The notes under the pieces were generated by a model. It saw only the letters and a program-made list of their open reading frames with translations, was not told the origin of the DNA and ran no database searches. Source: Copranaerobaculum intestinale (GTDB lineage: Bacteria; Bacillota_I; Bacilli_A; Erysipelotrichales; Erysipelotrichaceae). From it: 32,000 nucleotides of DNA. Of this stretch, positions 2,821-32,000 are shown one piece after another. Position numbers and translations under genes: made by a program. The DNA lies in assembly GCF_009831105.1 (NCBI RefSeq), contig NZ_WUUQ01000002.1, positions 660,001 to 692,000 of the forward strand, written 5' to 3'. Position 1 is the first letter of the stretch; every line of letters starts with the position of its first letter.

Positions 2821-3413
2821 TATTTGCTCTCCAGAATAATATCTTTCAGCTGCATGAAATAACTGATACCGGAGATCACACTGACAATCGTTGCCAGCCA
2901 TAAAAAGAAGTCAGCCATTGGAAAGCGCATCAATTCAAACGGCAGATTATTCAGCAAAAACAATAGAATCGCCGTCATCTGGGTCACTGTTTTGATCTTT
3001 CCCAACATCCCCGCGGCTACGACCACGCCCTTGGAGCTGGCATTCATTCGCAGTCCGTCAACGATGACATCGCGCCAAATCATGATCAATACCGGCACTA
3101 CCGGCATGATTGAAGACGCCGCAAACAGTATCAGCATCGTATTTACCAATAATTTATCAGCGATCGGATCCATGAATTTGCCAAGTGATGTTACCAGATT
3201 ATGCTTACGCGCCAGATAACCATCCAGAAAATCCGTAAAAGAAGCCAGTGCGAAAAGCACCAGCACAATAATATTTGTTAAACGAAGCGATACAAATCCG
3301 ATTTGATATTCCGGAATGACAATTTGAAACTGCGCATAAGGAAAAATATAAATCAGCGCAATGACCGGCACCAAAGCGATTCGCAGCAGCGTTAATTTAT
3401 TCGGTACATTCAT
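2820..3413 (-). CDS. pgsA: CDP-diacylglycerol--glycerol-3-phosphate 3-phosphatidyltransferase
   Basis: CDP-alcohol phosphatidyltransferase motif DFLDGYLARKHNLVTSLGKFMDPIADK; polytopic membrane protein. Confidence 0.93.
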   Translation of the reverse strand: MNVPNKLTLLRIALVPVIALIYIFPYAQFQIVIPEYQIGFVSLRLTNIIVLVLFALASFTDFLDGYLARKHNLVTSLGKFMDPIADKLLVNTMLILFAASSIMPVVPVLIMIWRDVIVDGLRMNASSKGVVVAAGMLGKIKTVTQMTAILLFLLNNLPFELMRFPMADFFLWLATIVSVISGISYFMQLKDIILESK

Positions 3414-3416
3414 TTT

Positions 3417-4322
3417 CTACTGCCCCTTTTCATCAAAATACAAATTCGCCGGACTCGGATTGCCGGTAACCGTACTGTCTAATTTCACAGCAGTACCGTT
3501 GATTTTAATTTCATGTGCAGTCATATTGCCATAACGCAGCATGATCTGGGAACCGGCCTTAAAGGCAGTCTTATAGGTTGCCGTCTCTCCACTCTTATAT
3601 ATTTTGGAAGCAGGCTCGCCCTGCTGAACATTATCCAGGCTCAAAGCAAACCACACATCGGACTGAAAGGTCAATTCCATTGTCAGCTCATCGCCGTCCT
3701 TTAGTCCTGAAACCTCGAAATGATAGCCATCCGTCGTCTGCTTAATGGTTACCGCGTCGGCTTTTGGCTTAGCATCGTCAGGCTTGTCCTCTTTATCCTT
3801 TTCCTCGGGCTTCGGTTTTTCAACAACCGGTGCTGAATTGTCTTTGGGTGCATCACTTTTGCCAAGCTGGGGGAAGATATAAATAACGGCCAATACCAGA
3901 CACACAGCAATAACCGCTAGGATACCGATTAATGTAATCAAGGAGAAATCCGGCTTATGATGCTTTTTCACGCCCTTGATTGAAGCAGTCTGCATCGGCT
4001 TACTGATCGATTTCGCATTCTTGGCAACATTTGCTTCTATCTGTTCATGATCCTTCGCTACCTGCATCGTAAAGGTGGCGGTATAGTCATTTATCGACTC
4101 CTGAAGCATCGGTTTAATTTCATCAAAATCAATTCCCAGCACATCGCAATAGGAGCGTAAAAAATATCGAAGATAAGAAAGATCATCCTTAAAATAAGAG
4201 ATATCGCCTTCTTCGATGGCATGTATATATTTAATGGTCAGACGTGTTTTTGCTGATATTTCTTCTACGGTAAACCCTTTTTCCAGACGTTTTTCTTTTA
4301 ACAAGTTTCCGATTTTTTCCAT
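3417..4322 (-). CDS. rodZ: RodZ-like cytoskeleton protein (XRE-type HTH, one TM helix, C-terminal beta domain)
   Basis: N-terminal HTH LKEKRLEKGFTVEEISAKTRLTIKYIHAIEEGD, TM segment LITLIGILAVIAVCLVLAVIYIF, and a K/E/P/D-rich linker. Start at MEKIGN, 7 nt after GAGGTG. Same position as ymfM/rodZ in B. subtilis. Confidence 0.85.
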   Translation of the reverse strand: MEKIGNLLKEKRLEKGFTVEEISAKTRLTIKYIHAIEEGDISYFKDDLSYLRYFLRSYCDVLGIDFDEIKPMLQESINDYTATFTMQVAKDHEQIEANVAKNAKSISKPMQTASIKGVKKHHKPDFSLITLIGILAVIAVCLVLAVIYIFPQLGKSDAPKDNSAPVVEKPKPEEKDKEDKPDDAKPKADAVTIKQTTDGYHFEVSGLKDGDELTMELTFQSDVWFALSLDNVQQGEPASKIYKSGETATYKTAFKAGSQIMLRYGNMTAHEIKINGTAVKLDSTVTGNPSPANLYFDEKGQ

Positions 4323-5823: not shown

Positions 5824-8500
5824 GAAAAAAATAAAAAATGATAAGACAAAGGCACCTCGCAAGCGGATGTCAAAGCGCCGCATTCTCAACTCCGTGGTAA
5901 TCGTATTTTTATCACTGGTGCTGATCGGCGGTGTGACAACCTTTTTCATTTTAAATCAGGTCATCAATGATGCTCCTGCTTTGGATGCGAGTTCTTTAAA
6001 ATCCGGAGAAGCTACTCAATTATATGATAAGGATGGAAAAGCCTTTACTTCACTGGGTAATGAAAATCGAAAAAACATTAAATATGAGGATCTGCCCCAG
6101 AGTGTTATCGATGCATTTCTGTCGATCGAAGATTCCCGTTTCTTTGAACATAATGGATTTGATCTTCCCCGCTTTATGAAAGCGGCAATGGAAAACCTGT
6201 CGGCTGGTAATTTGGGACAGGGCGGCTCCACTTTGACCATGCAGCTGATTGATAACGCAATCATGACAAAGCTGGAAAAAACAGATCCGGCAACCTCATC
6301 AATAAAAAAGATCGAGCGTAAAATTCAGGAAATCTGGCTGAGCTTGAAGCTTGAAAAGGATTCTTCCAAACAAGAAATTATGGTCGATTATCTGAATAAA
6401 GTAAACTTCGGTAACGCCGCCCGCGGTATTCAGCGCGGTGCCGAATACTATTTCGGCAAGGACGTACAGGATCTGACCCTTTCTGAATCTGCCTTTTTGG
6501 CCGGGGTCATCAATGCTCCTAATACATACAACCCGTATAAGAGCGCTGTCTATAACTATACGACCAAAGATTGGACCGATCATTACCAATTGGCGGAGCA
6601 GCGCCGCAACCAAACTTTAAAGCTGATGAACTATCATGGCTTCATAACCGATGAAGAATACAAATTAGCAAAATCAACGAAGCTGGCATTCCAGCTGAAC
6701 GGCGAAAAAACGTTTAACACAGATCCTTATCAGGGTTATATCGATACCGTACAAAAAGAAGTCCTAGAGTTGACAAACGGCAAGGTGGACATCAATACCG
6801 GCGGATATAAAGTATATACCGGTATGGACCTTGGAGCGCAGGAGCTGGCTGATTCTATTTTAAACGGTACCGCTGACATCAATTATCCGGATGATTCCTA
6901 TTTCCAGACCGGCTTTACCCTGATGAATAATCAGACCGGTGAGATTATCGCTGTCGGAGCCGGACGTAACTATACCGGCGATGAGCGGACAAACTACGCA
7001 AATGATATGCGGCAGCCTGGTTCCAGCATCAAGCCGCTGCTGGATTATGCTCCTACCTTTGATTACCTAGGCTGGGCAACATCCATGACACTGGAAGATA
7101 CGCCGATGACGTATCGCGGGACCAATATTCCATTATATAACTACAGCCGTACCAATGTCGGAGACGTGACAATGGGCGATGCGGTTGCTCACTCTCTCAA
7201 CACCACGGCAATGCAGTCACTCGAAGAGCTTGTCGATAAAGTCGGGGTTGAAAAAATGCAGCAACTGATGATCGATATGGGCTTTGATAAAGATATTGTT
7301 AAGGATTTCGATCTCGGTTATTCAATCGGCGGTTCCAATATGCAGACGACAACCAAGCAAATGGCTGGTGCCTACTCCATCTTTGCCAATGGCGGTAAGT
7401 ACATTACTCCGCATACGGTACGCAAAGTTGTGGATACCAAAACCGGAAAAGTGGTTGCCGAAACCGATTATGCAAATAAAACAAAACAGGTCATCTCCGG
7501 TGATGCAGCCTTCATGATGTCGGATCTGCTGAAAAACGCGGTTGACGGCAACTGGAACAACCTGCTTCAAATTCTGCGCAGCAACTATCCGGTTTATGCT
7601 AAGAGTGGTACCAGTGACTGGGGTACGGAAGGCTCTGTTTATGGAATCCCTACCGCCGCCATGAAAGATAAATGGATCTGTGCCTACACCAGCAACTATA
7701 CGATAGCGACCTGGGCAGGTTATGAAAATAAAGTAAGTGATCCGGCTTCCATTAATTATGTAACCGATGCGGTGATGAATATGAACGTGCCGGGACAGAT
7801 ATCTCATAAGATGCTTGACTATATGTCGACCCAAACGAATCTTTCGGCGATTCAACAGCCGAGCACAGTTACAAAAATCACGCATATCAAGGGCTTGTAT
7901 CCGTATACTGCCGCTCCGGAAGGAACTCCTTCGGACATGCTGATCACCGGATACATCCGTTCTAAATTTGCGAAACTGGCAAGTGCTCCAAGTGCCGATC
8001 AATTATCAGCTCCAAGCAGCTTTACCGCAAAATTGACCGACAGCACTTCCGATACATTAGAATTAAAGTTTGCGGCGTATCCGGATGCGGATAAACTAAA
8101 AGAGGGATCGCACACGAAAACCTTTACCCGCAATGGCATCAAATGGTCCGGACATGCCTTCTATGATCCGACCGATTTGTTTGGCCGTGTCATGTATAAA
8201 GTAGATGTTACGATTGACGGATCAAAAGTAGGAACCTACTCCTTCGATAAAGAATCCGCTACACAAACAATTCCGATACCTGCTGGCAAAACCGCTAAGG
8301 TCTGCGGCTATTACGGATATAAAAATACGACTAACGGACAAAGCAGTTCAGTTTGTGTGAACGTAACCAGGGATGCAGATACTGAGGAACCTGATCCTAC
8401 ACCAGACCCTGATCCAAATCCAAATCCGGATGACAACACCAATCAAAATGGCAAAACATTATACAATGTGTTCACCTATCTCTATAAGCGAATCAGTTAA
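5813..8500 (+). CDS. ponA: Class A penicillin-binding protein PBP1A/1B (bifunctional glycosyltransferase/transpeptidase) with a long C-terminal extension
   Basis: GT51 motifs EDSRFFEHNGFD and GGSTLTMQL. Transpeptidase motifs SSIKP (SxxK), HSLN (SxN) and KSGT (KTG-like). N-terminal TM anchor. Start at MNDKKK, after AGGAGG. Confidence 0.95.
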   Translation: MNDKKKIKNDKTKAPRKRMSKRRILNSVVIVFLSLVLIGGVTTFFILNQVINDAPALDASSLKSGEATQLYDKDGKAFTSLGNENRKNIKYEDLPQSVIDAFLSIEDSRFFEHNGFDLPRFMKAAMENLSAGNLGQGGSTLTMQLIDNAIMTKLEKTDPATSSIKKIERKIQEIWLSLKLEKDSSKQEIMVDYLNKVNFGNAARGIQRGAEYYFGKDVQDLTLSESAFLAGVINAPNTYNPYKSAVYNYTTKDWTDHYQLAEQRRNQTLKLMNYHGFITDEEYKLAKSTKLAFQLNGEKTFNTDPYQGYIDTVQKEVLELTNGKVDINTGGYKVYTGMDLGAQELADSILNGTADINYPDDSYFQTGFTLMNNQTGEIIAVGAGRNYTGDERTNYANDMRQPGSSIKPLLDYAPTFDYLGWATSMTLEDTPMTYRGTNIPLYNYSRTNVGDVTMGDAVAHSLNTTAMQSLEELVDKVGVEKMQQLMIDMGFDKDIVKDFDLGYSIGGSNMQTTTKQMAGAYSIFANGGKYITPHTVRKVVDTKTGKVVAETDYANKTKQVISGDAAFMMSDLLKNAVDGNWNNLLQILRSNYPVYAKSGTSDWGTEGSVYGIPTAAMKDKWICAYTSNYTIATWAGYENKVSDPASINYVTDAVMNMNVPGQISHKMLDYMSTQTNLSAIQQPSTVTKITHIKGLYPYTAAPEGTPSDMLITGYIRSKFAKLASAPSADQLSAPSSFTAKLTDSTSDTLELKFAAYPDADKLKEGSHTKTFTRNGIKWSGHAFYDPTDLFGRVMYKVDVTIDGSKVGTYSFDKESATQTIPIPAGKTAKVCGYYGYKNTTNGQSSSVCVNVTRDADTEEPDPTPDPDPNPNPDDNTNQNGKTLYNVFTYLYKRIS

Positions 8501-8555
8501 TTAAAAAACACGCAGTTTATCCATGATATGCAATCAGAATTCATATCACCGATAG

Positions 8556-8580
8556 CTGCTTTTTTTTACCGCAAAAGCAG
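8556..8580. other. Stem-loop in the ponA/nth convergent spacer (possible ponA terminator, no clean U-tract)
   Basis: CTGCTTTT-TTTTACCGC-AAAAGCAG. Confidence 0.3.
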
Positions 8581-8585
8581 AAGAT

Positions 8586-8612
8586 TAAAAAAGGACAGAT
8601 TGTTTCTGTCCC
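8586..8612 (-). terminator. Rho-independent terminator of nth
   Basis: Minus strand GGACAGA-AACAA-TCTGTCC followed by TTTTTTAATC, 6 nt after the nth stop. Confidence 0.75.
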
Positions 8613-8617
8613 ATCTA

Positions 8618-9262
8618 TCAGCCTTTTGTCTTACGGTATGCTTCCAGTTTATCTTTCTTGCAGAAGGAGACAAACGGACAGCCTTCACACTGAGGATTTC
8701 TGGCAGTACACATATATCGTCCAAAAAAGATGAACAGATGATGCGCACGGTTCCAACGTTCACGCTTGATCTTGCGCTTCAGCTTTGTTTCCACTGTTTC
8801 TACGCTATCCTGTACTTTGGCAAGACCCAACCGTTTGGATATGCGCTCTACATGTGTATCCACAGCCAGTGCCGGGATATCAAACCAGACACTGCGAACA
8901 ACATTCGCCGTTTTGCGTCCTACCCCGGAAAGCGACGTCAGATCTTTCATGCTGCTAGGCACCTCACCCTGAAAATGTTCCATTAAAGACTGAGCCAGTC
9001 CGATGATCATTCGAGATTTATTATGATAGAGGCCGATTGTTTTAATATATCCCTCCACCGCTTTTACATCTGCCATAGCCATCGTGCCTGCATCCGGGTA
9101 TCGTTCAAACAGAGCTGGTGTAACCCGATTTACAGACTGATCCGTTGTTTGGGCAGATAATACCACCGCTACAATTAATTGAAAAGCATTTTGATGATAC
9201 AGTTCACATTCCGCGTTTGGAAAGCGTTCCTCCAGAAGATCCAGAATTTCATCCGTTGTCAT
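8618..9262 (-). CDS. nth: Endonuclease III (DNA glycosylase/AP lyase)
   Basis: HhH-GPD motif LTSLSGVGRKTANVV and 4Fe-4S cluster loop CTARNPQCEGCPFVSFC. Start at MTTDEIL, overlapping the dnaD stop (TAATG). Confidence 0.94.
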   Translation of the reverse strand: MTTDEILDLLEERFPNAECELYHQNAFQLIVAVVLSAQTTDQSVNRVTPALFERYPDAGTMAMADVKAVEGYIKTIGLYHNKSRMIIGLAQSLMEHFQGEVPSSMKDLTSLSGVGRKTANVVRSVWFDIPALAVDTHVERISKRLGLAKVQDSVETVETKLKRKIKRERWNRAHHLFIFFGRYMCTARNPQCEGCPFVSFCKKDKLEAYRKTKG

Positions 9263-9801
9263 TATCGTTCCCCCCGTTCCAATTGTTCTGCGTTTAATCC
9301 CCGCCGTTTCCATTCCGCTAAGATGCGGTCAATATAATCAAGACTGCGCGTATTGTATAAATCCGCTTCCCGCAGCGCGTATTCAATCATGGCCTGTTCA
9401 TACGTCTGCATCCATTCTGCAATGCGCTGCATTTCAACTGATGACAGTGGTCTTGCAAACACCGACTCGAACATATCGAACAATGATTCACTGATGGTGA
9501 CAGAAGGTTTCCTTTGTTCTTCAAAAATTCCGTCGATTGAAAATTCAATCGTTCCCTGCTGATAAAGAATTTGTAAGTATCCCTTATTTACCAGGGTTGA
9601 GAGTAATTCATCCACTTCCTGATCATCAATCTTCAGCTTGGCCGCCAGCACGGCATGTGAAATAATTAAGCGGTGCTCATTCATAAAATCAATCAATAGG
9701 AGAATCATGCCCTCCTGTGCTGTCAAGGTTAATGATTCAAAACGATCCAGCAAAAAATCCCTGCGATTGACAAAACGCTGGGTCCACCATTTCTCACTCA
9801 T
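9262..9801 (-). CDS. dnaD: DnaD-domain replication initiation / membrane attachment protein
   Basis: Winged-helix N-terminal part plus the C-terminal DnaD/DnaB-2 motif SLDYIDRILAEWKRRGL. The dnaD-nth pairing matches B. subtilis. Confidence 0.85.
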   Translation of the reverse strand: MSEKWWTQRFVNRRDFLLDRFESLTLTAQEGMILLLIDFMNEHRLIISHAVLAAKLKIDDQEVDELLSTLVNKGYLQILYQQGTIEFSIDGIFEEQRKPSVTISESLFDMFESVFARPLSSVEMQRIAEWMQTYEQAMIEYALREADLYNTRSLDYIDRILAEWKRRGLNAEQLERGER

Positions 9802-10253
9802 ACCGTTTCCTCCCGATAATACACCTGCTTCAAGGAATCAAAATCATAATATACCGTTTGATGCTTCCCTGTCACGATATATACGGCATTCTTATAGCCA
9901 TATCCCAATGTCACCTTTGCCTCTTTCAGCTGATATGTATCTATGGCTTTTTGCATTGCTTCCTCACGTCGGTCTTTCTTGATACTGCGTTTCATCAGCA
10001 GCTTACCATCCTGATCAAACCAGTAATCGTAATTGCTGCTGTGACCACTGTAGGTCACATAATGAAAAGCATGGCGCTCTACCGCCTCAATGTTCTTATA
10101 GTCCTGCGCGATCTTAACTTTGACAGCGGCAATATCTTTTTCATATTTCTGATTCGGACCGGTGATAAATACTGATATTTCAACAATCAGCACTCCCGCC
10201 AAAATCAGCAGTAAAAGCAATGTTACAACTATATTTCGCATGCGGCTATGCAT
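9798..10253 (-). CDS. Membrane-anchored YpmB/TseB-like (PepSY-type) protein
   Basis: N-terminal TM IVVTLLLLLILAGVLIVEISVFI followed by a small extracytoplasmic alpha/beta domain. ypmB occupies the same region in B. subtilis. Start at the ATG 5 nt after GAGGTG (the GTG at 10259 lies inside the RBS). ATGA overlap with dnaD. Confidence 0.55.
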   Translation of the reverse strand: MHSRMRNIVVTLLLLLILAGVLIVEISVFITGPNQKYEKDIAAVKVKIAQDYKNIEAVERHAFHYVTYSGHSSNYDYWFDQDGKLLMKRSIKKDRREEAMQKAIDTYQLKEAKVTLGYGYKNAVYIVTGKHQTVYYDFDSLKQVYYREETV

Positions 10254-10333
10254 ATACACACCTCAATTTCCATTTTATTATACAACATTTCACTGCATAT
10301 GTATCATAAAATACTTACCTGTTTCTACCCCTA

Positions 10334-10357
10334 AGAAAAAAGTCCCTGACGGACTTA
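10334..10357 (-). terminator. Rho-independent terminator after mtnN
   Basis: Minus strand AAGTCC-GTCAG-GGACTT followed by TTTTTC; overlaps the mtnN stop. Confidence 0.7.
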
Positions 10358-11041
10358 TTCAAAATTCATTACCGCGCACTCTACAAAAGCGGCTGATCGT
10401 TTCGATGCGATATCGGCGTACTGAAGAAAATCCATATGAGAATTTTCATGGCAGGCAACGTCGGATAAAGAGCGAACCACTACAAACGGACAGTGATAAT
10501 GGTTTGCAACCTGGGCGATCGCTCCGGCTTCCATTTCACAGCACATCGCTTTGGGATAAAGTCTTTGTATCCGATCCATCTGCTCACCAGCTGTAATAAA
10601 GCGATCACCACTGGCGATCAGTCCGATGAACACCTCATGCGCTTCCTCCTGAATCGCTTTTTGAACCATCTCCACCAGCTTTGCATCAGCCTTAAAATAC
10701 ATGCCGATACCAGTTTCACCATCAAGTGCTGATGTATCGAAATCATGCTGAACTACCTGTTCACCGATTACAATATCCAGGATATGTTCTTCCGGCCGGA
10801 TTCCTCCGGCGGTTCCAATGTTGATGATTGAATCAATCGCAAAATGCTCCAGCAGTATGGTTGTGGACATCGCTGCGTAACCTTTTCCCACCCCGCTCAT
10901 CATCAATACAACATCACGGCCAGCTAAGCTACCAAGCGTAAATGAAATACCGCTGATGATCTGCCGCTCGGATTTTTGCATACGCATTTCCAATGCATCT
11001 CTTTCTAGTTCCATCGCCGCAATGATTCCAATCATACTCAT
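10355..11041 (-). CDS. mtnN: 5'-methylthioadenosine/S-adenosylhomocysteine nucleosidase
   Basis: MIGIIAAMELE, SGVGKGYAA, INIGTAGG and EMEAGAIAQV are typical of the PNP_UDP_1 MtnN family. ATGA overlap with the upstream methyltransferase. Confidence 0.92.
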   Translation of the reverse strand: MSMIGIIAAMELERDALEMRMQKSERQIISGISFTLGSLAGRDVVLMMSGVGKGYAAMSTTILLEHFAIDSIINIGTAGGIRPEEHILDIVIGEQVVQHDFDTSALDGETGIGMYFKADAKLVEMVQKAIQEEAHEVFIGLIASGDRFITAGEQMDRIQRLYPKAMCCEMEAGAIAQVANHYHCPFVVVRSLSDVACHENSHMDFLQYADIASKRSAAFVECAVMNFE

Positions 11042-11745
11042 TTCTCCTTTTTCGCAAGATAAAAATATTTCTCTCCCGGCTGAATCCCAGGCTTTTTAAA
11101 ATCGGTCATGACCTTCCAAGAAAAACCGCATTCCTCCAGCTGCTCCTTTAAAAAAGAAGGGGCAAAGACTCTCTGGATATGCTGTTCATGATGGGTAACC
11201 CCGTTTTCATCAAAAAACAGAAAGTTTTGATAGAGCCGATCCTCCTGTGCGAGAATACTCCACTCATACTGTACCTCATGCAGCGATCCCTCTTCCAGAT
11301 ATTCATCTTCAAATTCTTTCAGCCGATCCAATGAATGCGTATCAAAAATAAAACAGCCTCCTGGCTTCAATGCCTGGTAAGCATTATGAAAAAAAGCGTA
11401 TACCTGTTCATCTTCAAGCAGATAGTTGAAGCTGTCACACAGACAGATCACACCATCATACAATTCATTCACTTCAGCCGGAGCACACATATCCTGTATC
11501 TGCCAATGAACCAGTTCACTTCCCGGTTTGGCTCGTGCGCTTTGAAGCATCGCTTCACTAATATCCCCTGCTGTGACAGCATACCCATCCTTTGCCAGGG
11601 CGATTGCCATATCACCGCTGCCGCACGCATATTCCAGAATCGATCCAGCGTTAATCTGCTTTTTGATTTCATTCTTCCAGAACAGTGTAGTTTCTTCATC
11701 ACCGACCAGCTCGTCATAATAAACGGCCAGCGCCTGATACATCAT
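11038..11745 (-). CDS. Class I SAM-dependent methyltransferase (YqeM-like)
   Basis: SAM motif I ILEYACGSGDMA. Position after rsfS matches yqeM in B. subtilis. Confidence 0.85.
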   Translation of the reverse strand: MMYQALAVYYDELVGDEETTLFWKNEIKKQINAGSILEYACGSGDMAIALAKDGYAVTAGDISEAMLQSARAKPGSELVHWQIQDMCAPAEVNELYDGVICLCDSFNYLLEDEQVYAFFHNAYQALKPGGCFIFDTHSLDRLKEFEDEYLEEGSLHEVQYEWSILAQEDRLYQNFLFFDENGVTHHEQHIQRVFAPSFLKEQLEECGFSWKVMTDFKKPGIQPGEKYFYLAKKEK

Positions 11746-12077
11746 AGAGCTTCTAATCGCGGAACATCGGCATACAGCTTTTCTAAGCCATAATGCTCCC
11801 GTTCCTCTTCCAAAAATACATGGACCACGACATCATGCAGATCGACCAGCACCCAGCGGCTTTCTCTTGTTCCCTCAATGGCTCGAAGATCATAGCCCGC
11901 TTCCTTTGCGCTGTCTACGACATGATCGGCCAACGCCCATACCTGTCGCTGATTGGATGCGCTCGCAATCACGACATATTCCATGTATGGATTGATCTCA
12001 CGAAAATCGTATACCGTGATGCGGTTGGCCTTTTTCTCATCCAATGCATGTACTGCTTTTTTTAAAATTTCATTCAT
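11742..12077 (-). CDS. rsfS: Ribosome silencing factor RsfS
   Basis: RsfS/YqeL-like sequence (DYVVIASASNQRQVWALADHV, WVLVDLHDVVVHVF). Start at MNEILKK, 9 nt after AAAGGAGA. Confidence 0.92.
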   Translation of the reverse strand: MNEILKKAVHALDEKKANRITVYDFREINPYMEYVVIASASNQRQVWALADHVVDSAKEAGYDLRAIEGTRESRWVLVDLHDVVVHVFLEEEREHYGLEKLYADVPRLEAL

Positions 12078-28336: not shown

Positions 28337-28371
28337 GTTAAACTCCTCCTTCCTAAGCTGATGATAGATAT

Positions 28372-28380
28372 ATTATAACA
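28372..28380 (-). promoter_or_regulatory. Extended -10 element (TGtTATAAT) upstream of the ureohydrolase gene
   Basis: Minus strand TGTTATAAT, 36 nt upstream of the ATG. Weak -35. No terminator is seen between this gene and the upstream 836-aa gene. Confidence 0.45.
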
Positions 28381-28415
28381 GAATTCTAAATATATCTGCT
28401 GGATGTTTTCCGTTA

Positions 28416-30926
28416 TCATTCAGCCATAACCAAATTCATAGCAAGACCCTCGTTTATTTCTTGAAACTCCCAAATAATAGTTTGATTGTTTTTAGGTACA
28501 ACCAACTGTTTCACAAACGGTACACAATTTTCTTCAAGGTATTTTTGTTCCAACGATTTGGTTCCATAGCGCCGAATAAAATAAGTGATGAAGGAGATCA
28601 AAATTCCGGCGATGGTACAAATCCATCCGATCCCCGGCAAAAGCGAAACAAATGCAAAGGAACCGATAATCGTTGGTAAAAATGTACTGATGAAAGCAAA
28701 CCCGATGGTTGCTACCATCGCAATGCCATTTACAATTCCATTGATGACATTGAAAGCAGTAAGCCATCCTGCATAACCATATTTTGCCACATCGCTGACG
28801 ATATCGCACACACATACAGAAAAAGCAAAAGCACTCATTAAACCACCGCAAAATTTCATCATTTTCGGCATTTCTTCCGAACTTTTCATAACACGTTCCC
28901 AAAACCCTTTACCTTCATTTGTCATAACATCAAGCTCTTGACTTTTCAGCGCCTGCGTGCCTTTTACAGAACCGGAACTGCTGCTGGAAAATTCTGACAT
29001 CGCTTCGATGGATGTGCTATTCTTACACCAATTTCCATAAGCCTCATATCCGTTATTGAATATATCAACGATGCTGTATGAGAAGCTGAGGACTGCCGAT
29101 GCCTGTTGAGAACTGCTCATTTCATCCCAGTTAACAAAGGTACTGATACTATTCCATATCATAAGACCCTGCGTAAGCATCAGCGCAGCGACACGAATTC
29201 CAATTCTAATCTTCGGGTGAGTTTTATAGAAATCATCAAGGCATTGAAATATTGTTCGATCCATTTCACCGGACACCCATATTTCAAACTCCAGTAAGGC
29301 TGCGGCAATATACGGGTAATAGTCTTCAGGTACCGTGATGATCTTATTTTTAAGCGCCTCGTCAATTGCATTCTTCAGATCCTGAAGCTCCGGCGTTAAA
29401 GTCTGCTCACCATAAATCCGTTTGATCAACTGCTTTGCCGCTAGCCCATAATATTGGTGGCGCTGATCTTCATTCATAACAATATCGGTCATGGTATCGG
29501 TCATGGTTTTATTCATCACGCAGCGATTCAATAAATGATAATATAGATCACTGCCCAGTGAAGTCAGATAGACCGTCGGCTCATCATGATCACTCATGCA
29601 TAATGGACTGTTTTGAGGATTCACCATTTGTATACACTTATCCGGATACAGATAATTCAATAATATAACAAGATGCTGTAACCGCGATTGAATATCATGC
29701 GTGTACTCATCCAGCATTAGTCTGGCCAGTTCTTCATATAAAGCATAATCATGTACCTGAAACGCCCATTTCTTAGCTTCTGATAAATACGGTTTAATTT
29801 CAGGAATGCTTTGAAAATATACCATTCCATATAAGCGATCAGTCAGTTTTTGATAAGCCGGTTCATTACAAAAAGAAGTGGCCTCATGGCCATTATAATA
29901 TCCATCCAATCGTTCTTTATGGAATTCTATATCTTTAATCAAATAAGAGTATTCATAATCTCCAGCCGCCAAAATAGAGCTAAGACAGGCTTCATAATAA
30001 TGACCGACCAAAAGTGTTTTCACATCCGGATTCGCATCTACAAAATCAACCATTTCCTGTGTGATATCCGAACCGATATGGGGGCGGTCGGGATTTCCGA
30101 TATATGTTATCTGATCATCATCGATGTAGTAAAGCATTAAATTATGCAAATAGCTGGAAAAGTTTGTATTAACTGCTTCAACATTTGGCATCGGCACCAT
30201 AAATAGACTTTCTACATAAAGCGGCGTCTTTTCGTTTAGATATGTAATCCGCTGGTCGTCAAATACTGTGGGCATAGCTTCCCCTGCCGAATGAATCTGC
30301 CTGCGGATTTGCCGCTCCCGCTCACTCATCACATAGCTTCCGCTTACGCGCATACTCGCTGATTCGATAAAGCTGGCTTCCTCCGAATGCCAGGCACTGC
30401 CATACATTGACATAAGGTCATCAGCAAGTGTAACATCATAGAACGAAAAGTTTTGATATCCTTCTAATCCATCAAACATCGTTCCCTGAATATGAAGGCT
30501 ATTCCCTTTCCCCTCACAAAGATGGCTATATGCTAGATTTACATTCGAATGAAGCAAGTGCAGCTCCATCGTTTCAATGAGGCTTCCGTTCTCCATGCGG
30601 CTGCCAAGACATAATTCATATTCTTGTTGCTGCTGATCATCTGTAAATGTCATGATATATTTAGAATCACATGATGCTTTAAATACATGAACTCCGGTTT
30701 GATCGAGAAGTACACCACCCAACAAACGTGAATGATTCAAAGATACAATCCGTCCACAGCGCTGATATGCCGGCTGATCCCAATAGAGGGAGTCCTCCTT
30801 GACGATCGTTGATACCGGCATTTGATCGATATAAACCGTCTGATTGATACATGCCATTGCGAATGGAACATGCTCATCATCGGAATAGATCGTTAGGTCA
30901 TAGCATACATTCGAATTCCATTTCAT
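28416..30926 (-). CDS. Orphan 836-aa protein: large soluble N-terminal region plus C-terminal glycine-rich multi-helix hydrophobic module
   Basis: Uninterrupted ORF. No signal peptide (MKWNSNVCYDLTIYSDDEHV). No Walker, HExxH or other catalytic signature that I recognise. Hydrophobic segments are IRIGIRVAALMLTQGLMIWNSISTFV and then FCGGLMSAFAFSVCVCDIV...GWLTAFNVINGIVNGIAMVATIGFAFISTFLPTIIGSFAFVSLLPGIGWICTIAGILISFITYF. The ATG at 30926 lies 1 nt after the upstream stop (TGAtATG). Confidence 0.8.
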   Translation of the reverse strand: MKWNSNVCYDLTIYSDDEHVPFAMACINQTVYIDQMPVSTIVKEDSLYWDQPAYQRCGRIVSLNHSRLLGGVLLDQTGVHVFKASCDSKYIMTFTDDQQQQEYELCLGSRMENGSLIETMELHLLHSNVNLAYSHLCEGKGNSLHIQGTMFDGLEGYQNFSFYDVTLADDLMSMYGSAWHSEEASFIESASMRVSGSYVMSERERQIRRQIHSAGEAMPTVFDDQRITYLNEKTPLYVESLFMVPMPNVEAVNTNFSSYLHNLMLYYIDDDQITYIGNPDRPHIGSDITQEMVDFVDANPDVKTLLVGHYYEACLSSILAAGDYEYSYLIKDIEFHKERLDGYYNGHEATSFCNEPAYQKLTDRLYGMVYFQSIPEIKPYLSEAKKWAFQVHDYALYEELARLMLDEYTHDIQSRLQHLVILLNYLYPDKCIQMVNPQNSPLCMSDHDEPTVYLTSLGSDLYYHLLNRCVMNKTMTDTMTDIVMNEDQRHQYYGLAAKQLIKRIYGEQTLTPELQDLKNAIDEALKNKIITVPEDYYPYIAAALLEFEIWVSGEMDRTIFQCLDDFYKTHPKIRIGIRVAALMLTQGLMIWNSISTFVNWDEMSSSQQASAVLSFSYSIVDIFNNGYEAYGNWCKNSTSIEAMSEFSSSSSGSVKGTQALKSQELDVMTNEGKGFWERVMKSSEEMPKMMKFCGGLMSAFAFSVCVCDIVSDVAKYGYAGWLTAFNVINGIVNGIAMVATIGFAFISTFLPTIIGSFAFVSLLPGIGWICTIAGILISFITYFIRRYGTKSLEQKYLEENCVPFVKQLVVPKNNQTIIWEFQEINEGLAMNLVMAE

Positions 30927-30927
30927 A

Positions 30928-31956
30928 TCAGTTTTTCCCTTCCATTTCCACAAGTATTTCTGTGATCATATGCTTAGCGGATTCACCAAGCAGAGCTTCC
31001 CATAACGAAACCTGAGTGAGCAGCTTATCAATGACCGCATGTCGTTCAGCTTCTGCCAGATCAGCGATCCTTCGCTTCAAATAAGCAAGTGTAAGCTGTG
31101 GATATGCCAGCAGGCAGGGATAACCATTTGCATAGTAAGAATGAAAGCCGTCATAAACATGAAGATCGTAGCAACAGGCATGCTTTGTATTTTCTGTGAT
31201 GTGTATCCGTTCTACCACAACTTCATGCGGTTTCCCTTGATCATCAAGCTTGATAATACGATCACCTATTTTCAAAGTCTTTACTTGAAATTCCGGACAG
31301 ATCATATTGGTGGCTGCCGGCTGTGGTGCACACCAGCCCCGCTGGGTCATGATCGCATGATCCAAAGACATAAACGGAATATCCTCATTGACCGCGTATA
31401 GAAATGCAACCTGATGATTTTGGACCAATTCATCAGAAAGATAGGACTCACTTCCCTGTACATTTAATATCATATCATTCTTGCTTGTGCATTCGATTGG
31501 CACACATGTCCCATTCTTCAATCGTATTAGCGTACCAGCCAGCACACAGCCACCGCTTTCCTTTTTGTAACAGCCGTTGGCATCACCCGTGCTTTTGACC
31601 CACGCAACTGCTGCTTCACCATAAAAATGTTCATCATAGGCTCGCCTCGTGATAACTTCACCGCCGCCATATGCTTGATAAGCATCATGATGAACCGTTC
31701 TACAGCTTTCACTGTAGCGCTTGACATCTTGATTCATGGTTTTATAGATTGACATATCTTTTCCCAATTCATTGACAAATAATGTTGGCCAGTCATAATC
31801 CTTCAGATATTCATCCAGTTGATATACTTTACAAAAATTCGCATCGAACATTTTCCAATTTTCAAGAACTCGATCAGCAGCTGCATCATTGTGACAGTGC
31901 AGCATCAATAATAACACTTTAAAACGCCATATTTTGGTAATATCCGATTTATACAT
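30928..31956 (-). CDS. Hint (Hedgehog/intein-like) autoprocessing-domain protein; N-terminus uncertain
   Basis: Residues about 137-283 carry Hint blocks: A = GG|CVLAGTLIRLKNG, B = SLDH, LKIGDRII, and F/G = YDLHVYDGFHSYYANGYP. The ATG at 31956 has no SD, and the frame stays open to base 32000. Confidence 0.75.
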   Translation of the reverse strand: MYKSDITKIWRFKVLLLMLHCHNDAAADRVLENWKMFDANFCKVYQLDEYLKDYDWPTLFVNELGKDMSIYKTMNQDVKRYSESCRTVHHDAYQAYGGGEVITRRAYDEHFYGEAAVAWVKSTGDANGCYKKESGGCVLAGTLIRLKNGTCVPIECTSKNDMILNVQGSESYLSDELVQNHQVAFLYAVNEDIPFMSLDHAIMTQRGWCAPQPAATNMICPEFQVKTLKIGDRIIKLDDQGKPHEVVVERIHITENTKHACCYDLHVYDGFHSYYANGYPCLLAYPQLTLAYLKRRIADLAEAERHAVIDKLLTQVSLWEALLGESAKHMITEILVEMEGKN

Positions 31957-31959
31957 ATT

Positions 31960-31986
31960 AAAAAATAAACGCTGCGAGATTGCAGC
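31960..31986 (-). terminator. Terminator-like hairpin immediately upstream of the Hint gene ATG
   Basis: Minus strand GCTGC-AATCTC-GCAGC followed by GTTTATTTTTTAAT then ATG. A +1-frame TGA (31990-31988) precedes it, consistent with the end of an upstream gene. The stem is only 5 bp. Confidence 0.4.
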
Positions 31987-32000
31987 CTCAAACGACGGAT

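Follow-up and report, generated by a model that had tools for sequence, protein, structure and literature searches.

At the end of a 32,000-nucleotide stretch of the Copranaerobaculum intestinale genome (RefSeq assembly GCF_009831105.1, contig NZ_WUUQ01000002.1, positions 660,001 to 692,000; this whole stretch is referred to here as the window), two genes, which we call A and B, lie in the same orientation on the minus strand and are separated by 1 nucleotide. Protein A (WP_160625320.1, named 'Hint domain-containing protein' in UniRef) is composed of a helical N-terminal domain of 281 amino acids, hereafter the N-domain, a Hint domain and a helical tail of 55 amino acids, and protein B (WP_160625319.1, 'hypothetical protein') is a predicted membrane protein. 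The window holds only the 3' part of gene A, the start of which is extrapolated to about position 32391; on the native contig of another strain (L001, 8536-9999) the full-length gene codes for 487 amino acids and is 98% identical to the in-window part. Here, we describe the two proteins and the family to which they belong, and then focus on the predicted function of the Hint domain and on the explanations that compete with it.

The preliminary description of the window, which was made from the sequence alone, is borne out in its main lines. The two same-strand open reading frames (ORFs) split by the single nucleotide of TGAtATG are seen in the sequence, and the locus does run past base 32000, as had been thought possible, with the frame of A still open there and the full gene present in L001. 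The 342-amino-acid upstream ORF of that description proved to be an artefact of the window edge, and the stretch ahead of the Hint domain, given as about 136 amino acids, actually measures 281. What had been called a full Hint autoprocessing domain is a real fold with conserved catalytic residues, from which cleavage by A is predicted; it was recognised through motifs and fold comparison, with Pfam blind to it, and the helical tail of about 55 amino acids behind it is seen in the structural model. Protein B indeed has 836 amino acids and no signal peptide, and it ends in a hydrophobic multi-helix module (about residues 688-788).

Domains of proteins A and B

The Hint domain of protein A is marked by Cys282 in GGCVLAGT, S342-L-D-H345 (His codon 31359-31357), Asp409 and a Y-x-ANGYPCL motif, and five A-family sequences share an invariant G-C junction (GGC/SGC), S-x-x-H and 'YDL..DG..SY.ANGYPCL'. 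The AlphaFold2 (AF2) model of A, built from a five-sequence A-family alignment, has a mean predicted local distance difference test score (pLDDT) of 58, with values of 65-87 over residues 282-430. In a Foldseek search these residues best matched BIL2 of Tetrahymena BUBL1 (6y75; template modelling score (TM) 0.74-0.77, E 2.8e-5), with further Hint matches to the gp41-1, Prp8 and DnaB inteins, Vint (8r2c) and Hedgehog (1at0), all of them, 6y75 included, at a probability of 1.0. Searched against the PDB, a profile of 37 family sequences found PI-SceI, the Prp8 intein, BIL2 and Sonic hedgehog (Shh), through its Hint portion only. Curated models give no such signal: the window A had no match at E<=1 to PF01079, PF13403, PF07591, PF14623, PF05203 or PF14890, scans of A and B against Pfam, NCBIfam and PADLOC returned nothing significant and left the Hint domain unrecognised at E<=1, and relatives scored below the cutoffs of the Pfam Hint models (Hom_end_hint 17-20 bits, cutoff 32; Hint_2 18-19 bits, cutoff 28). 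Library scans of A, B, full-length A and fused relatives (Pfam, NCBIfam, PADLOC, PHROGs) yielded only sub-threshold Hint/AXH matches and one DUF2853. As modelled, the Hint fold of A is confirmed, and it belongs to a subfamily that scores under the thresholds of the curated models.

The two flanks of the Hint domain are also family features. The N-domain is helical in the AF2 model, at low confidence, and the corresponding A_Nterm profile matches split as well as fused relatives with E-values down to 1e-17. The tail is charged and amphipathic, and its profile is kept in all split forms; its first ~30 residues align with the post-Hint segment of fused relatives, which is consistent with a simple gene fission. 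It is presumed to be the docking element for B.

The AF2 model of protein B (37-sequence alignment) has a mean pLDDT of 76 and a predicted TM (pTM) of 0.64, with pLDDT above 90 across most of residues 10-440, and it resolves into the parts listed in Table 1. The N-terminal beta-domain finds merely faint barrel-like matches in the PDB by Foldseek (TbpB, LolA, lipocalin; TM <0.35). The helical domain is the best-conserved soluble part, distant relatives matching chiefly residues 225-435, and the membrane module is the most conserved part of the whole protein. The module is marked by Asp712, which is invariant, by a kink at LPGIGW and by the motif CVPFV, and it shares 48% identity with fragment P0013. 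In the segment behind the membrane module, K790, L792, Y796, C801-V805, L808 and P811 are invariant in close relatives, and F804 and P811 nearly so over the 37 sequences. Conserved positions of this alignment are mostly Gly, Pro and aromatic residues, and no catalytic signature is seen among them. The C-terminal hydrophobic cluster is present in all B-family members. Judged by N-terminal hydrophobicity, there is no signal peptide in B, nor in any A or fused member, the exception being a stand-alone N-domain at locus L016. The charge distribution of B fits an N-in/C-in arrangement, and sequence and model together suggest that B is probably anchored by its C-terminal helical module, with both ends in the cytoplasm. 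The B model had no fold match at E<=1e-3 in the PDB or among viral structures (BFVD), and PDB sequence searches with three profiles (A1, A2 and A3) gave no match in the B part. The structural comparison that the preliminary description had proposed thus found the Hint fold in A, with 6y75 as its nearest structure; for B it produced a model and resolved the domains but no PDB or viral relative.

Table 1. Coordinates of the A-B locus in the window (all positions are window positions; residue numbers are those of the full-length proteins)
Feature	Position	Strand	Basis or remark
Gene A, 3' part (residues ~131-487 plus stop)	30928..32000	-	frame open up to base 32000
N-domain of A, in-window part (residues ~131-281)	31549..32000	-	A_Nterm profile; piece predicted to be released
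Codons of Gly281 and Cys282 (ggc tgt), predicted autocleavage junction	31546..31551	-	sequence
Hint domain of A (residues 282-~430)	31102..31548	-	Foldseek and profile matches
Helical tail of A (residues 431-487)	30931..31101	-	helices 431-483 in AF2 model
Shine-Dalgarno-like GGAAGGG	30937-30943	-	10 nucleotides upstream of B start
A/B junction TGAtATG	30924..30930	-	A stop TGA 30930-30928, 1-nucleotide spacer, B ATG 30926-30924
Gene B (836 amino acids)	28416..30926	-	ORF; full-length alignment to relatives
N-terminal all-beta domain of B (residues 9-198)	30333..30902	-	~15 strands, pLDDT ~90
Helical domain of B (residues 200-623)	29058..30329	-	pLDDT >90 until ~440
Ser-rich disordered linker of B (residues 624-683)	28878..29057	-	pLDDT <50; poorly aligned, length variable
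C-terminal membrane module of B (helices 688-716, 720-749, 757-788)	28563..28865	-	hydropathy, model, conservation
Post-membrane segment of B (residues 789-812: RRYGTKSLEQKYLEENCVPFVKQL..P)	28491..28562	-	conservation

Fused, split and Hint-less members of the family

An exhaustive HMMER search with B over 1.84 billion representative sequences found 48 relatives at E<=1e-3, eight of which reach E<=1e-30; the B family is real but very rare. A word-indexed protein search, run with B alone and with a four-sequence B profile, returned only B's own cluster, which is a failure of sensitivity: its 'no homologues' is no proof of orphan status, because relatives with 35-38% identity exist in the same collection. 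B had been taken for an orphan in the preliminary description, and this is refuted by a family with members in other phyla that align to it over the full length. The relatives of A (33-38% identity) are each followed by a B gene that overlaps or closely abuts them (overlaps of 4 nucleotides in L003, L005 and L009 and of 14 nucleotides in L004 and L039), and the products of these following genes align to B over its full length with 35-38% identity. The paired genes were seen in Desulfovibrio, in metagenome-assembled genomes of Desulfovibrionaceae and in several metagenomic contigs, among otherwise unrelated genes. This conserved pairing, seen for each A relative, supports the earlier suggestion of an undescribed two-gene system, and natural fusions strengthen it.

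The fusions came to light in a comparison of A sub-profiles with the sequences of the B relatives. About 20 of these consist of one chain of ~1240-1510 amino acids, in which an A N-domain is followed by a Hint domain of the A type (E 1e-35 to 1e-60) and this in turn by a complete B; an archaeon, Ca. Methanomassiliicoccus intestinalis, has one such fused protein. In a few others, of ~1100-1290 amino acids, the chain is composed of Hint and B, with no detectable N-domain. In a third form, a B gene is accompanied by a separate Hint-less N-domain gene and the gene order is reversed (B, then N-domain), as in L016 and on the Vibrio coralliilyticus plasmid p337; in both cases the N-domain gene ends at a position aligned with the Gly|Cys junction. 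L016 has a B-only gene (414-2933) and an N-domain gene (3090-4211; 373 amino acids, no Hint), the product of which starts with a lipoprotein-type signal peptide (MLKNSKFLISFLCSTLLLSC|SS) that no other member has. No relative was found that joins the N-domain directly to B without a Hint domain, and there is no third conserved gene, most of the seemingly shared 'neighbours' being shadow ORFs that overlap the module and the single real case being an importer described further below. Because of their adjacency, the natural fusions and the form with a Hint-less B and N-domain, A and B are, as far as sequence comparison can tell, one conserved functional unit. On the same grounds the window pair is the split form of the fused protein, and its predicted mature state is that of a free N-domain plus B, as the Hint-less variants show.

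Several members depart from these three forms or add to them. On plasmid p337 (L042 6956-10499, NZ_CP031474.1), a B-like gene of 869 amino acids is followed by a 290-amino-acid Hint-less N-domain gene; the plasmid is a mobilizable MOBF megaplasmid, and a DEAD/DEAH helicase, a helix-turn-helix regulator and an IS3 transposase are encoded nearby. L038 (1793-8571; GCA_001559865.1, GC content 0.29) carries an A gene of 506 amino acids, an N-domain-only gene of 279 amino acids that stops just ahead of the junction position, an A gene of 512 amino acids and a single B, an array that could be a paralogue expansion or a decaying copy. A divergent branch on nine metagenomic contigs (L026-L035, ~7005-11806 each) has a family-type Hint protein with an N-terminal region unmatched by the N-domain profile, and a partner of 1080 amino acids, the gene of which overlaps the Hint gene and in which the beta-domain is duplicated and the same C-terminal hydrophobic module is found. 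Hint-B proteins of 1143-1157 amino acids without an N-domain, in which Cys1 is replaced by Gly, are encoded in L022 (344-5494) and L024 (348-3818), and in L022 a second gene in tandem, with an N-domain and an intact Hint, runs off the contig. Finally, P0029, a fused relative of 1508 amino acids, has an extra N-terminal DUF2853 (PF11015, E 1e-15; residues 10-107) before its N-domain.

Predicted autocleavage and proposed mechanism

Residue conservation was counted over 26 family Hint domains, 23 of which follow an N-extein of at least 191 amino acids and three an N-extein of at most 30. With the long N-extein, Cys1 and the block-B His are present in 23/23 domains and Gly(-1) in 22/23; the junction in the window protein is Gly-Gly|Cys. 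With the short N-extein, the catalytic residues are degenerate in all three, Cys1 being gone in P0016 and P0020 and Gly(-1) plus His in P0026. By this pattern, selection acts on the predicted N-S acyl shift at Gly281|Cys282 alone, and it does so only in proteins with an N-domain to remove. At the other end, the final Hint residue is variable (N/A/S/G/D/T), with Asn in ~60% of members and Ala in the window protein, and the +1 residue is Tyr in 24/26 members and never Cys, Ser or Thr. Because of the +1 Tyr and the variable terminal residue, splicing is chemically excluded and C-terminal cleavage by the Hint domain is, judging from these residues, not conserved. Most likely, the Hint domain cuts the N-domain off at Gly281|Cys282.

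The explanation that we prefer, and hold with moderate confidence, is that A and B together represent, in split form, a three-part module that is rare, self-contained and spread by horizontal transfer, consisting of the ~280-amino-acid helical N-domain, the Hint autoprocessing domain and the ~840-amino-acid membrane protein B, in which the N-domain is cleaved off next to its membrane partner. In the proposed model, coupled translation would make A and B together, and the Hint domain and helical tail of A would dock on B, a link that is covalent in many relatives. Next, Cys282 would attack the carbonyl of Gly281 in an N-S acyl shift assisted by His345, and the resulting thioester would be resolved, in the simplest case by hydrolysis. 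This would free an N-domain of ~31 kDa, while the Hint-tail piece would stay with B on the cytoplasmic side of the membrane. The Hint domain would act as a single-turnover cis-protease that delivers the N-domain to the membrane partner and then detaches it, the tether before release being covalent in fused forms and presumably provided by the tail in split forms. Such a Hint domain would be neither an intein nor a toxin-release device. As to the biological role, we tentatively suggest a conflict or mobile-element-associated membrane function, which we hold to be possible and somewhat doubtful.

A number of points weigh against this model. Hint domains can be inactive, and cleavage in the present case is inferred from conserved residues; the association of three against 23 domains ignores phylogenetic non-independence. 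The docking of A on B is proposed solely from fusion and coupling, and beyond the Hint domain the model of A is of low confidence (mean pLDDT 58; N-domain mostly <50). The three long helices of B would give an odd number of crossings if each of them spans the membrane, at odds with N-in/C-in, and the lipoprotein signal in L016 would put the N-domain outside the cytoplasm, in conflict with a purely cytoplasmic model.

Genomic contexts, alternative explanations and known systems

In the window organism the module lies among housekeeping and sporulation genes, at the edge of the dacF-spoIIA block as previously described: an arginase-family gene, dacF and spoIIAA/AB/sigF adjoin the pair downstream. 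Upstream of A, L001 has pdp and then a 12-bp hairpin terminator with a T-run (L001 8373-8404), and the A-B pair probably has its own promoter. No terminator-like hairpin was seen in the 3' flank of B (window 28337-28415), and transcription may read through from the pair into the arginase-family gene. This gene begins 80 nucleotides downstream of B and has a TTATAAT box ahead of it. The pair is not clearly foreign, since its GC content is 0.41 and that of the flanks 0.42-0.47. Within the species dN/dS is ~0.1-0.2, a value resting on merely 5-14 differences, which are too few for use.

Family members are hosted by Bacillota, Desulfovibrio (Desulfobacterota), a Vibrio plasmid and Methanomassiliicoccus, and the ~15 independent neighbourhoods inspected consist mostly of housekeeping genes that differ between lineages (pabB, TspO/VanZ, a beta-CASP nuclease, AKR, OEP, YfhO and others). 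Uptake genes of the Fe/B12 type occur next to the module in Desulfovibrio and Methanomassiliicoccus, where a Fec/Btu-type ATP-binding cassette importer (Peripla_BP_2, FecCD, ABC_tran) stands directly upstream of it (L003 3728-9871, L009, L013 1-3206, L018, L020), together with a TonB-dependent receptor in Desulfovibrio and CobN in Methanomassiliicoccus; the shared importer is probably coincidental, as clusters of this kind are frequent in the organisms concerned. Mobile-element contexts number only two, plasmid p337 and a conjugative element (L011 1-20122) that carries the fused relative P0018 as cargo. The genes of L011 include those for a relaxase, a NikA-like protein, AbiEii, ParA, an integrase, an anti-restriction protein, RdgC, a topoisomerase, ArdC, an S26 peptidase and a VirD4/TraG coupling protein.

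Among the alternatives, the one that survives best is an anti-phage, abortive-infection or other conflict system, in which a cytosolic sensor would control membrane-disrupting helices and Hint autoproteolysis would un-cage B. It is compatible with the cleavage chemistry set out above, and the patchy, cross-domain distribution of the family fits horizontal transfer. Further points in its favour are the two mobile copies, one of which is fused and has AbiEii, anti-restriction and ArdC genes as neighbours on its conjugative element, the other having a DEAD-box helicase and an IS3 element close by on its mobilizable Vibrio plasmid, together with the paralogue arrays in L038 and L022 and the conservation of the membrane module with its invariant Asp and Gly/Pro motifs. 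However, most of the ~15 neighbourhoods are housekeeping ones without defence genes, and inspection of these contexts, made without a formal enrichment statistic, revealed no recurrent location in defence islands or prophages. PADLOC-DB v2 had no match for A, B, full-length A or four relatives, PHROGs had none for the module proteins, and no phage or viral copies were found, two viral-contig matches being generic Hint fragments. Moreover, Hint cleavage is normally constitutive and single-turnover and would make a poor infection-triggered switch, the split form cannot 'release' B by cleavage because B is already a separate protein, and variants with a Hint-less B and an N-only gene exist. We therefore regard this explanation as rather unlikely. 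The preliminary description had proposed an autoproteolytically activated membrane effector, toxin or defence module, and none of the tests lent support to it: contexts are mostly housekeeping, and no PADLOC, phage or immunity signal appeared. The defence or toxin reading is thus unsupported, beyond the generic support that patchy horizontal spread provides. The accompanying statement that no characterised system has this pairing stands, as none was found in Pfam, NCBIfam, PADLOC, PHROGs, the PDB or the literature searched.

An acyl transfer of the Hedgehog or BUBL kind is improbable, and would differ from our preferred model in the fate of the thioester. The Gly281 thioester would be attacked by a nucleophile presented by B, either the head-group of a membrane lipid or a protein amine, and the N-domain would become covalently attached to the membrane or to a target without ATP. 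The Gly|Cys junction, which reads Gly-Gly|Cys in the window protein, is shared with Hedgehog and with the ubiquitin-like substrates of BIL domains. The nearest structure is BIL2 of BUBL, the N-extein of which is transferred to lysines (PMC8616854, section 2.4), and Hedgehog cholesterol transfer needs a helix-loop-helix region right after Hint (PMC7242414), where the module has a helical tail and then a membrane protein; the two studies provide precedents for a non-hydrolytic resolution of a Hint thioester. The first domain of B is a beta-barrel with faint LolA/lipocalin-like matches, and the L016 N-domain would be lipid-anchored by another route, through its lipobox. On the other hand, the tail of A is charged and amphipathic, unlike the hydrophobic sterol recognition region (SRR) of Hedgehog, the barrel matches stay below a TM of 0.35, and any adduct is purely conjectural. 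Covalent transfer is not essential to the family, because Hint-less N-only variants (L042 and the 279-amino-acid gene of L038) have neither a thioester nor a signal peptide.

Far less probable still is a polymorphic-toxin locus, in which a PT-HINT domain would release a C-terminal toxin and B would be the toxin or its immunity protein. The HINT domains of polymorphic toxins in bacteria are believed to set free the toxin domains at the C-terminus (PMC3417536), B is C-terminal to Hint in the fused relatives, and in L038 several A-type genes share one B in an arrangement reminiscent of cassette arrays. Toxin release of this kind is nevertheless a poor fit to the features of the module: Pfam scans found no secretion or trafficking domain and there is no N-terminal signal peptide, PF07591 is unmatched, the split form has merely the 55-amino-acid tail after Hint, the terminal Asn on which C-terminal cleavage chemistry depends is unconserved and absent in the window protein, no small downstream immunity gene or other immunity-like partner is conserved, and B is conserved over its full length and not hypervariable. 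This reading was rejected for want of secretion, toxin and immunity features. A (mini-)intein, a selfish element splicing the N-domain to B, has a negligible likelihood and was likewise rejected: the Hint fold, Cys1, the block-B His and a block F/G-like 'YDL...H.Y.ANG' motif are there, but the +1 Tyr makes transesterification impossible, the terminal residue is variable, no homing endonuclease is present, no relative has its N-domain joined straight to B, and a stop codon and the 55-amino-acid tail separate Hint from B in split forms.

To our knowledge, few prokaryotic Hint domains outside inteins and polymorphic toxins have a defined job. The present family offers a natural experiment, in which the same three parts occur fused, split or Hint-less and conservation of the catalytic residues goes along with the presence of an N-domain, and it pairs Hint with a ~840-amino-acid membrane protein that lacks a detectable fold or sequence relative outside the family. 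The module has passed between Bacillota, Desulfobacterota, a methanogenic archaeon and a plasmid of Vibrio, and it defines three new families (the N-domain, the Hint subfamily and B) that are labelled 'hypothetical' in current databases. Knowledge of what B and the freed N-domain do would extend the known uses of Hint chemistry. Were the thioester transferred and not hydrolysed, the module could serve as a prokaryotic model for Hedgehog-like lipidation or conjugation and would be a counterpart, in gut bacteria and archaea, of Hedgehog cholesterolysis or of the 'E1/E2/E3-free ubiquitination' of BUBL.

Compared with known systems, protein B resembles an abortive-infection effector in its overall shape, a soluble part of ~690 residues ahead of a conserved module of hydrophobic helices; it differs in lacking PADLOC homology, a defence-island context and a recognisable sensor or signalling domain, and in having an obligatory Hint partner. 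Class 1 inteins (gp41-1, Prp8, PI-SceI) share the fold and the block A, B and F motifs with A, which, in contrast, has no +1 nucleophile, conserved His-Asn, endonuclease or insertion into a conserved host protein. PT-HINT domains (PF07591; MafB-type) are, like that of A, bacterial Hint domains that serve (in A, by prediction) as autoproteolytic release modules in horizontally mobile genes, whereas the A-B module has no secretion domain, toxin domain or immunity gene, and it is the N-terminal and not the C-terminal cleavage residues that are conserved. Closer parallels are found in Hedgehog/Hog proteins, which have the same order of cargo, Gly|Cys, Hint and a post-Hint helical segment that engages the membrane (a prediction in the case of A and B). 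They also share what appears to be cleavage at the N-terminal side only, and 1at0 and Shh were both matched. In contrast to these proteins, the module is prokaryotic, without a signal peptide and presumably cytoplasmic, and has Hint-less variants; the ~60-amino-acid hydrophobic SRR of Hedgehog has its place taken by a charged tail with no SRR similarity and a huge membrane protein. BIL domains (BIL2, PDB 6y75/6tmm) likewise resemble A in the Hint fold, the N-terminal Cys, the block-B His, the lack of canonical splicing and the release of the N-extein via a thioester, which is predicted for A. They differ in sequence (identity ~14-15%; A does not reach the Pfam Hint models, and the terminal Asn is unconserved in its family) and in their flanks, which are ubiquitin-like or secreted and hypervariable in BIL proteins and consist here of a 280-amino-acid helical domain and an 840-amino-acid membrane protein. 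What is new here is a Hint autoprocessing protein of a known kind that is combined with a novel cargo and a novel membrane partner.

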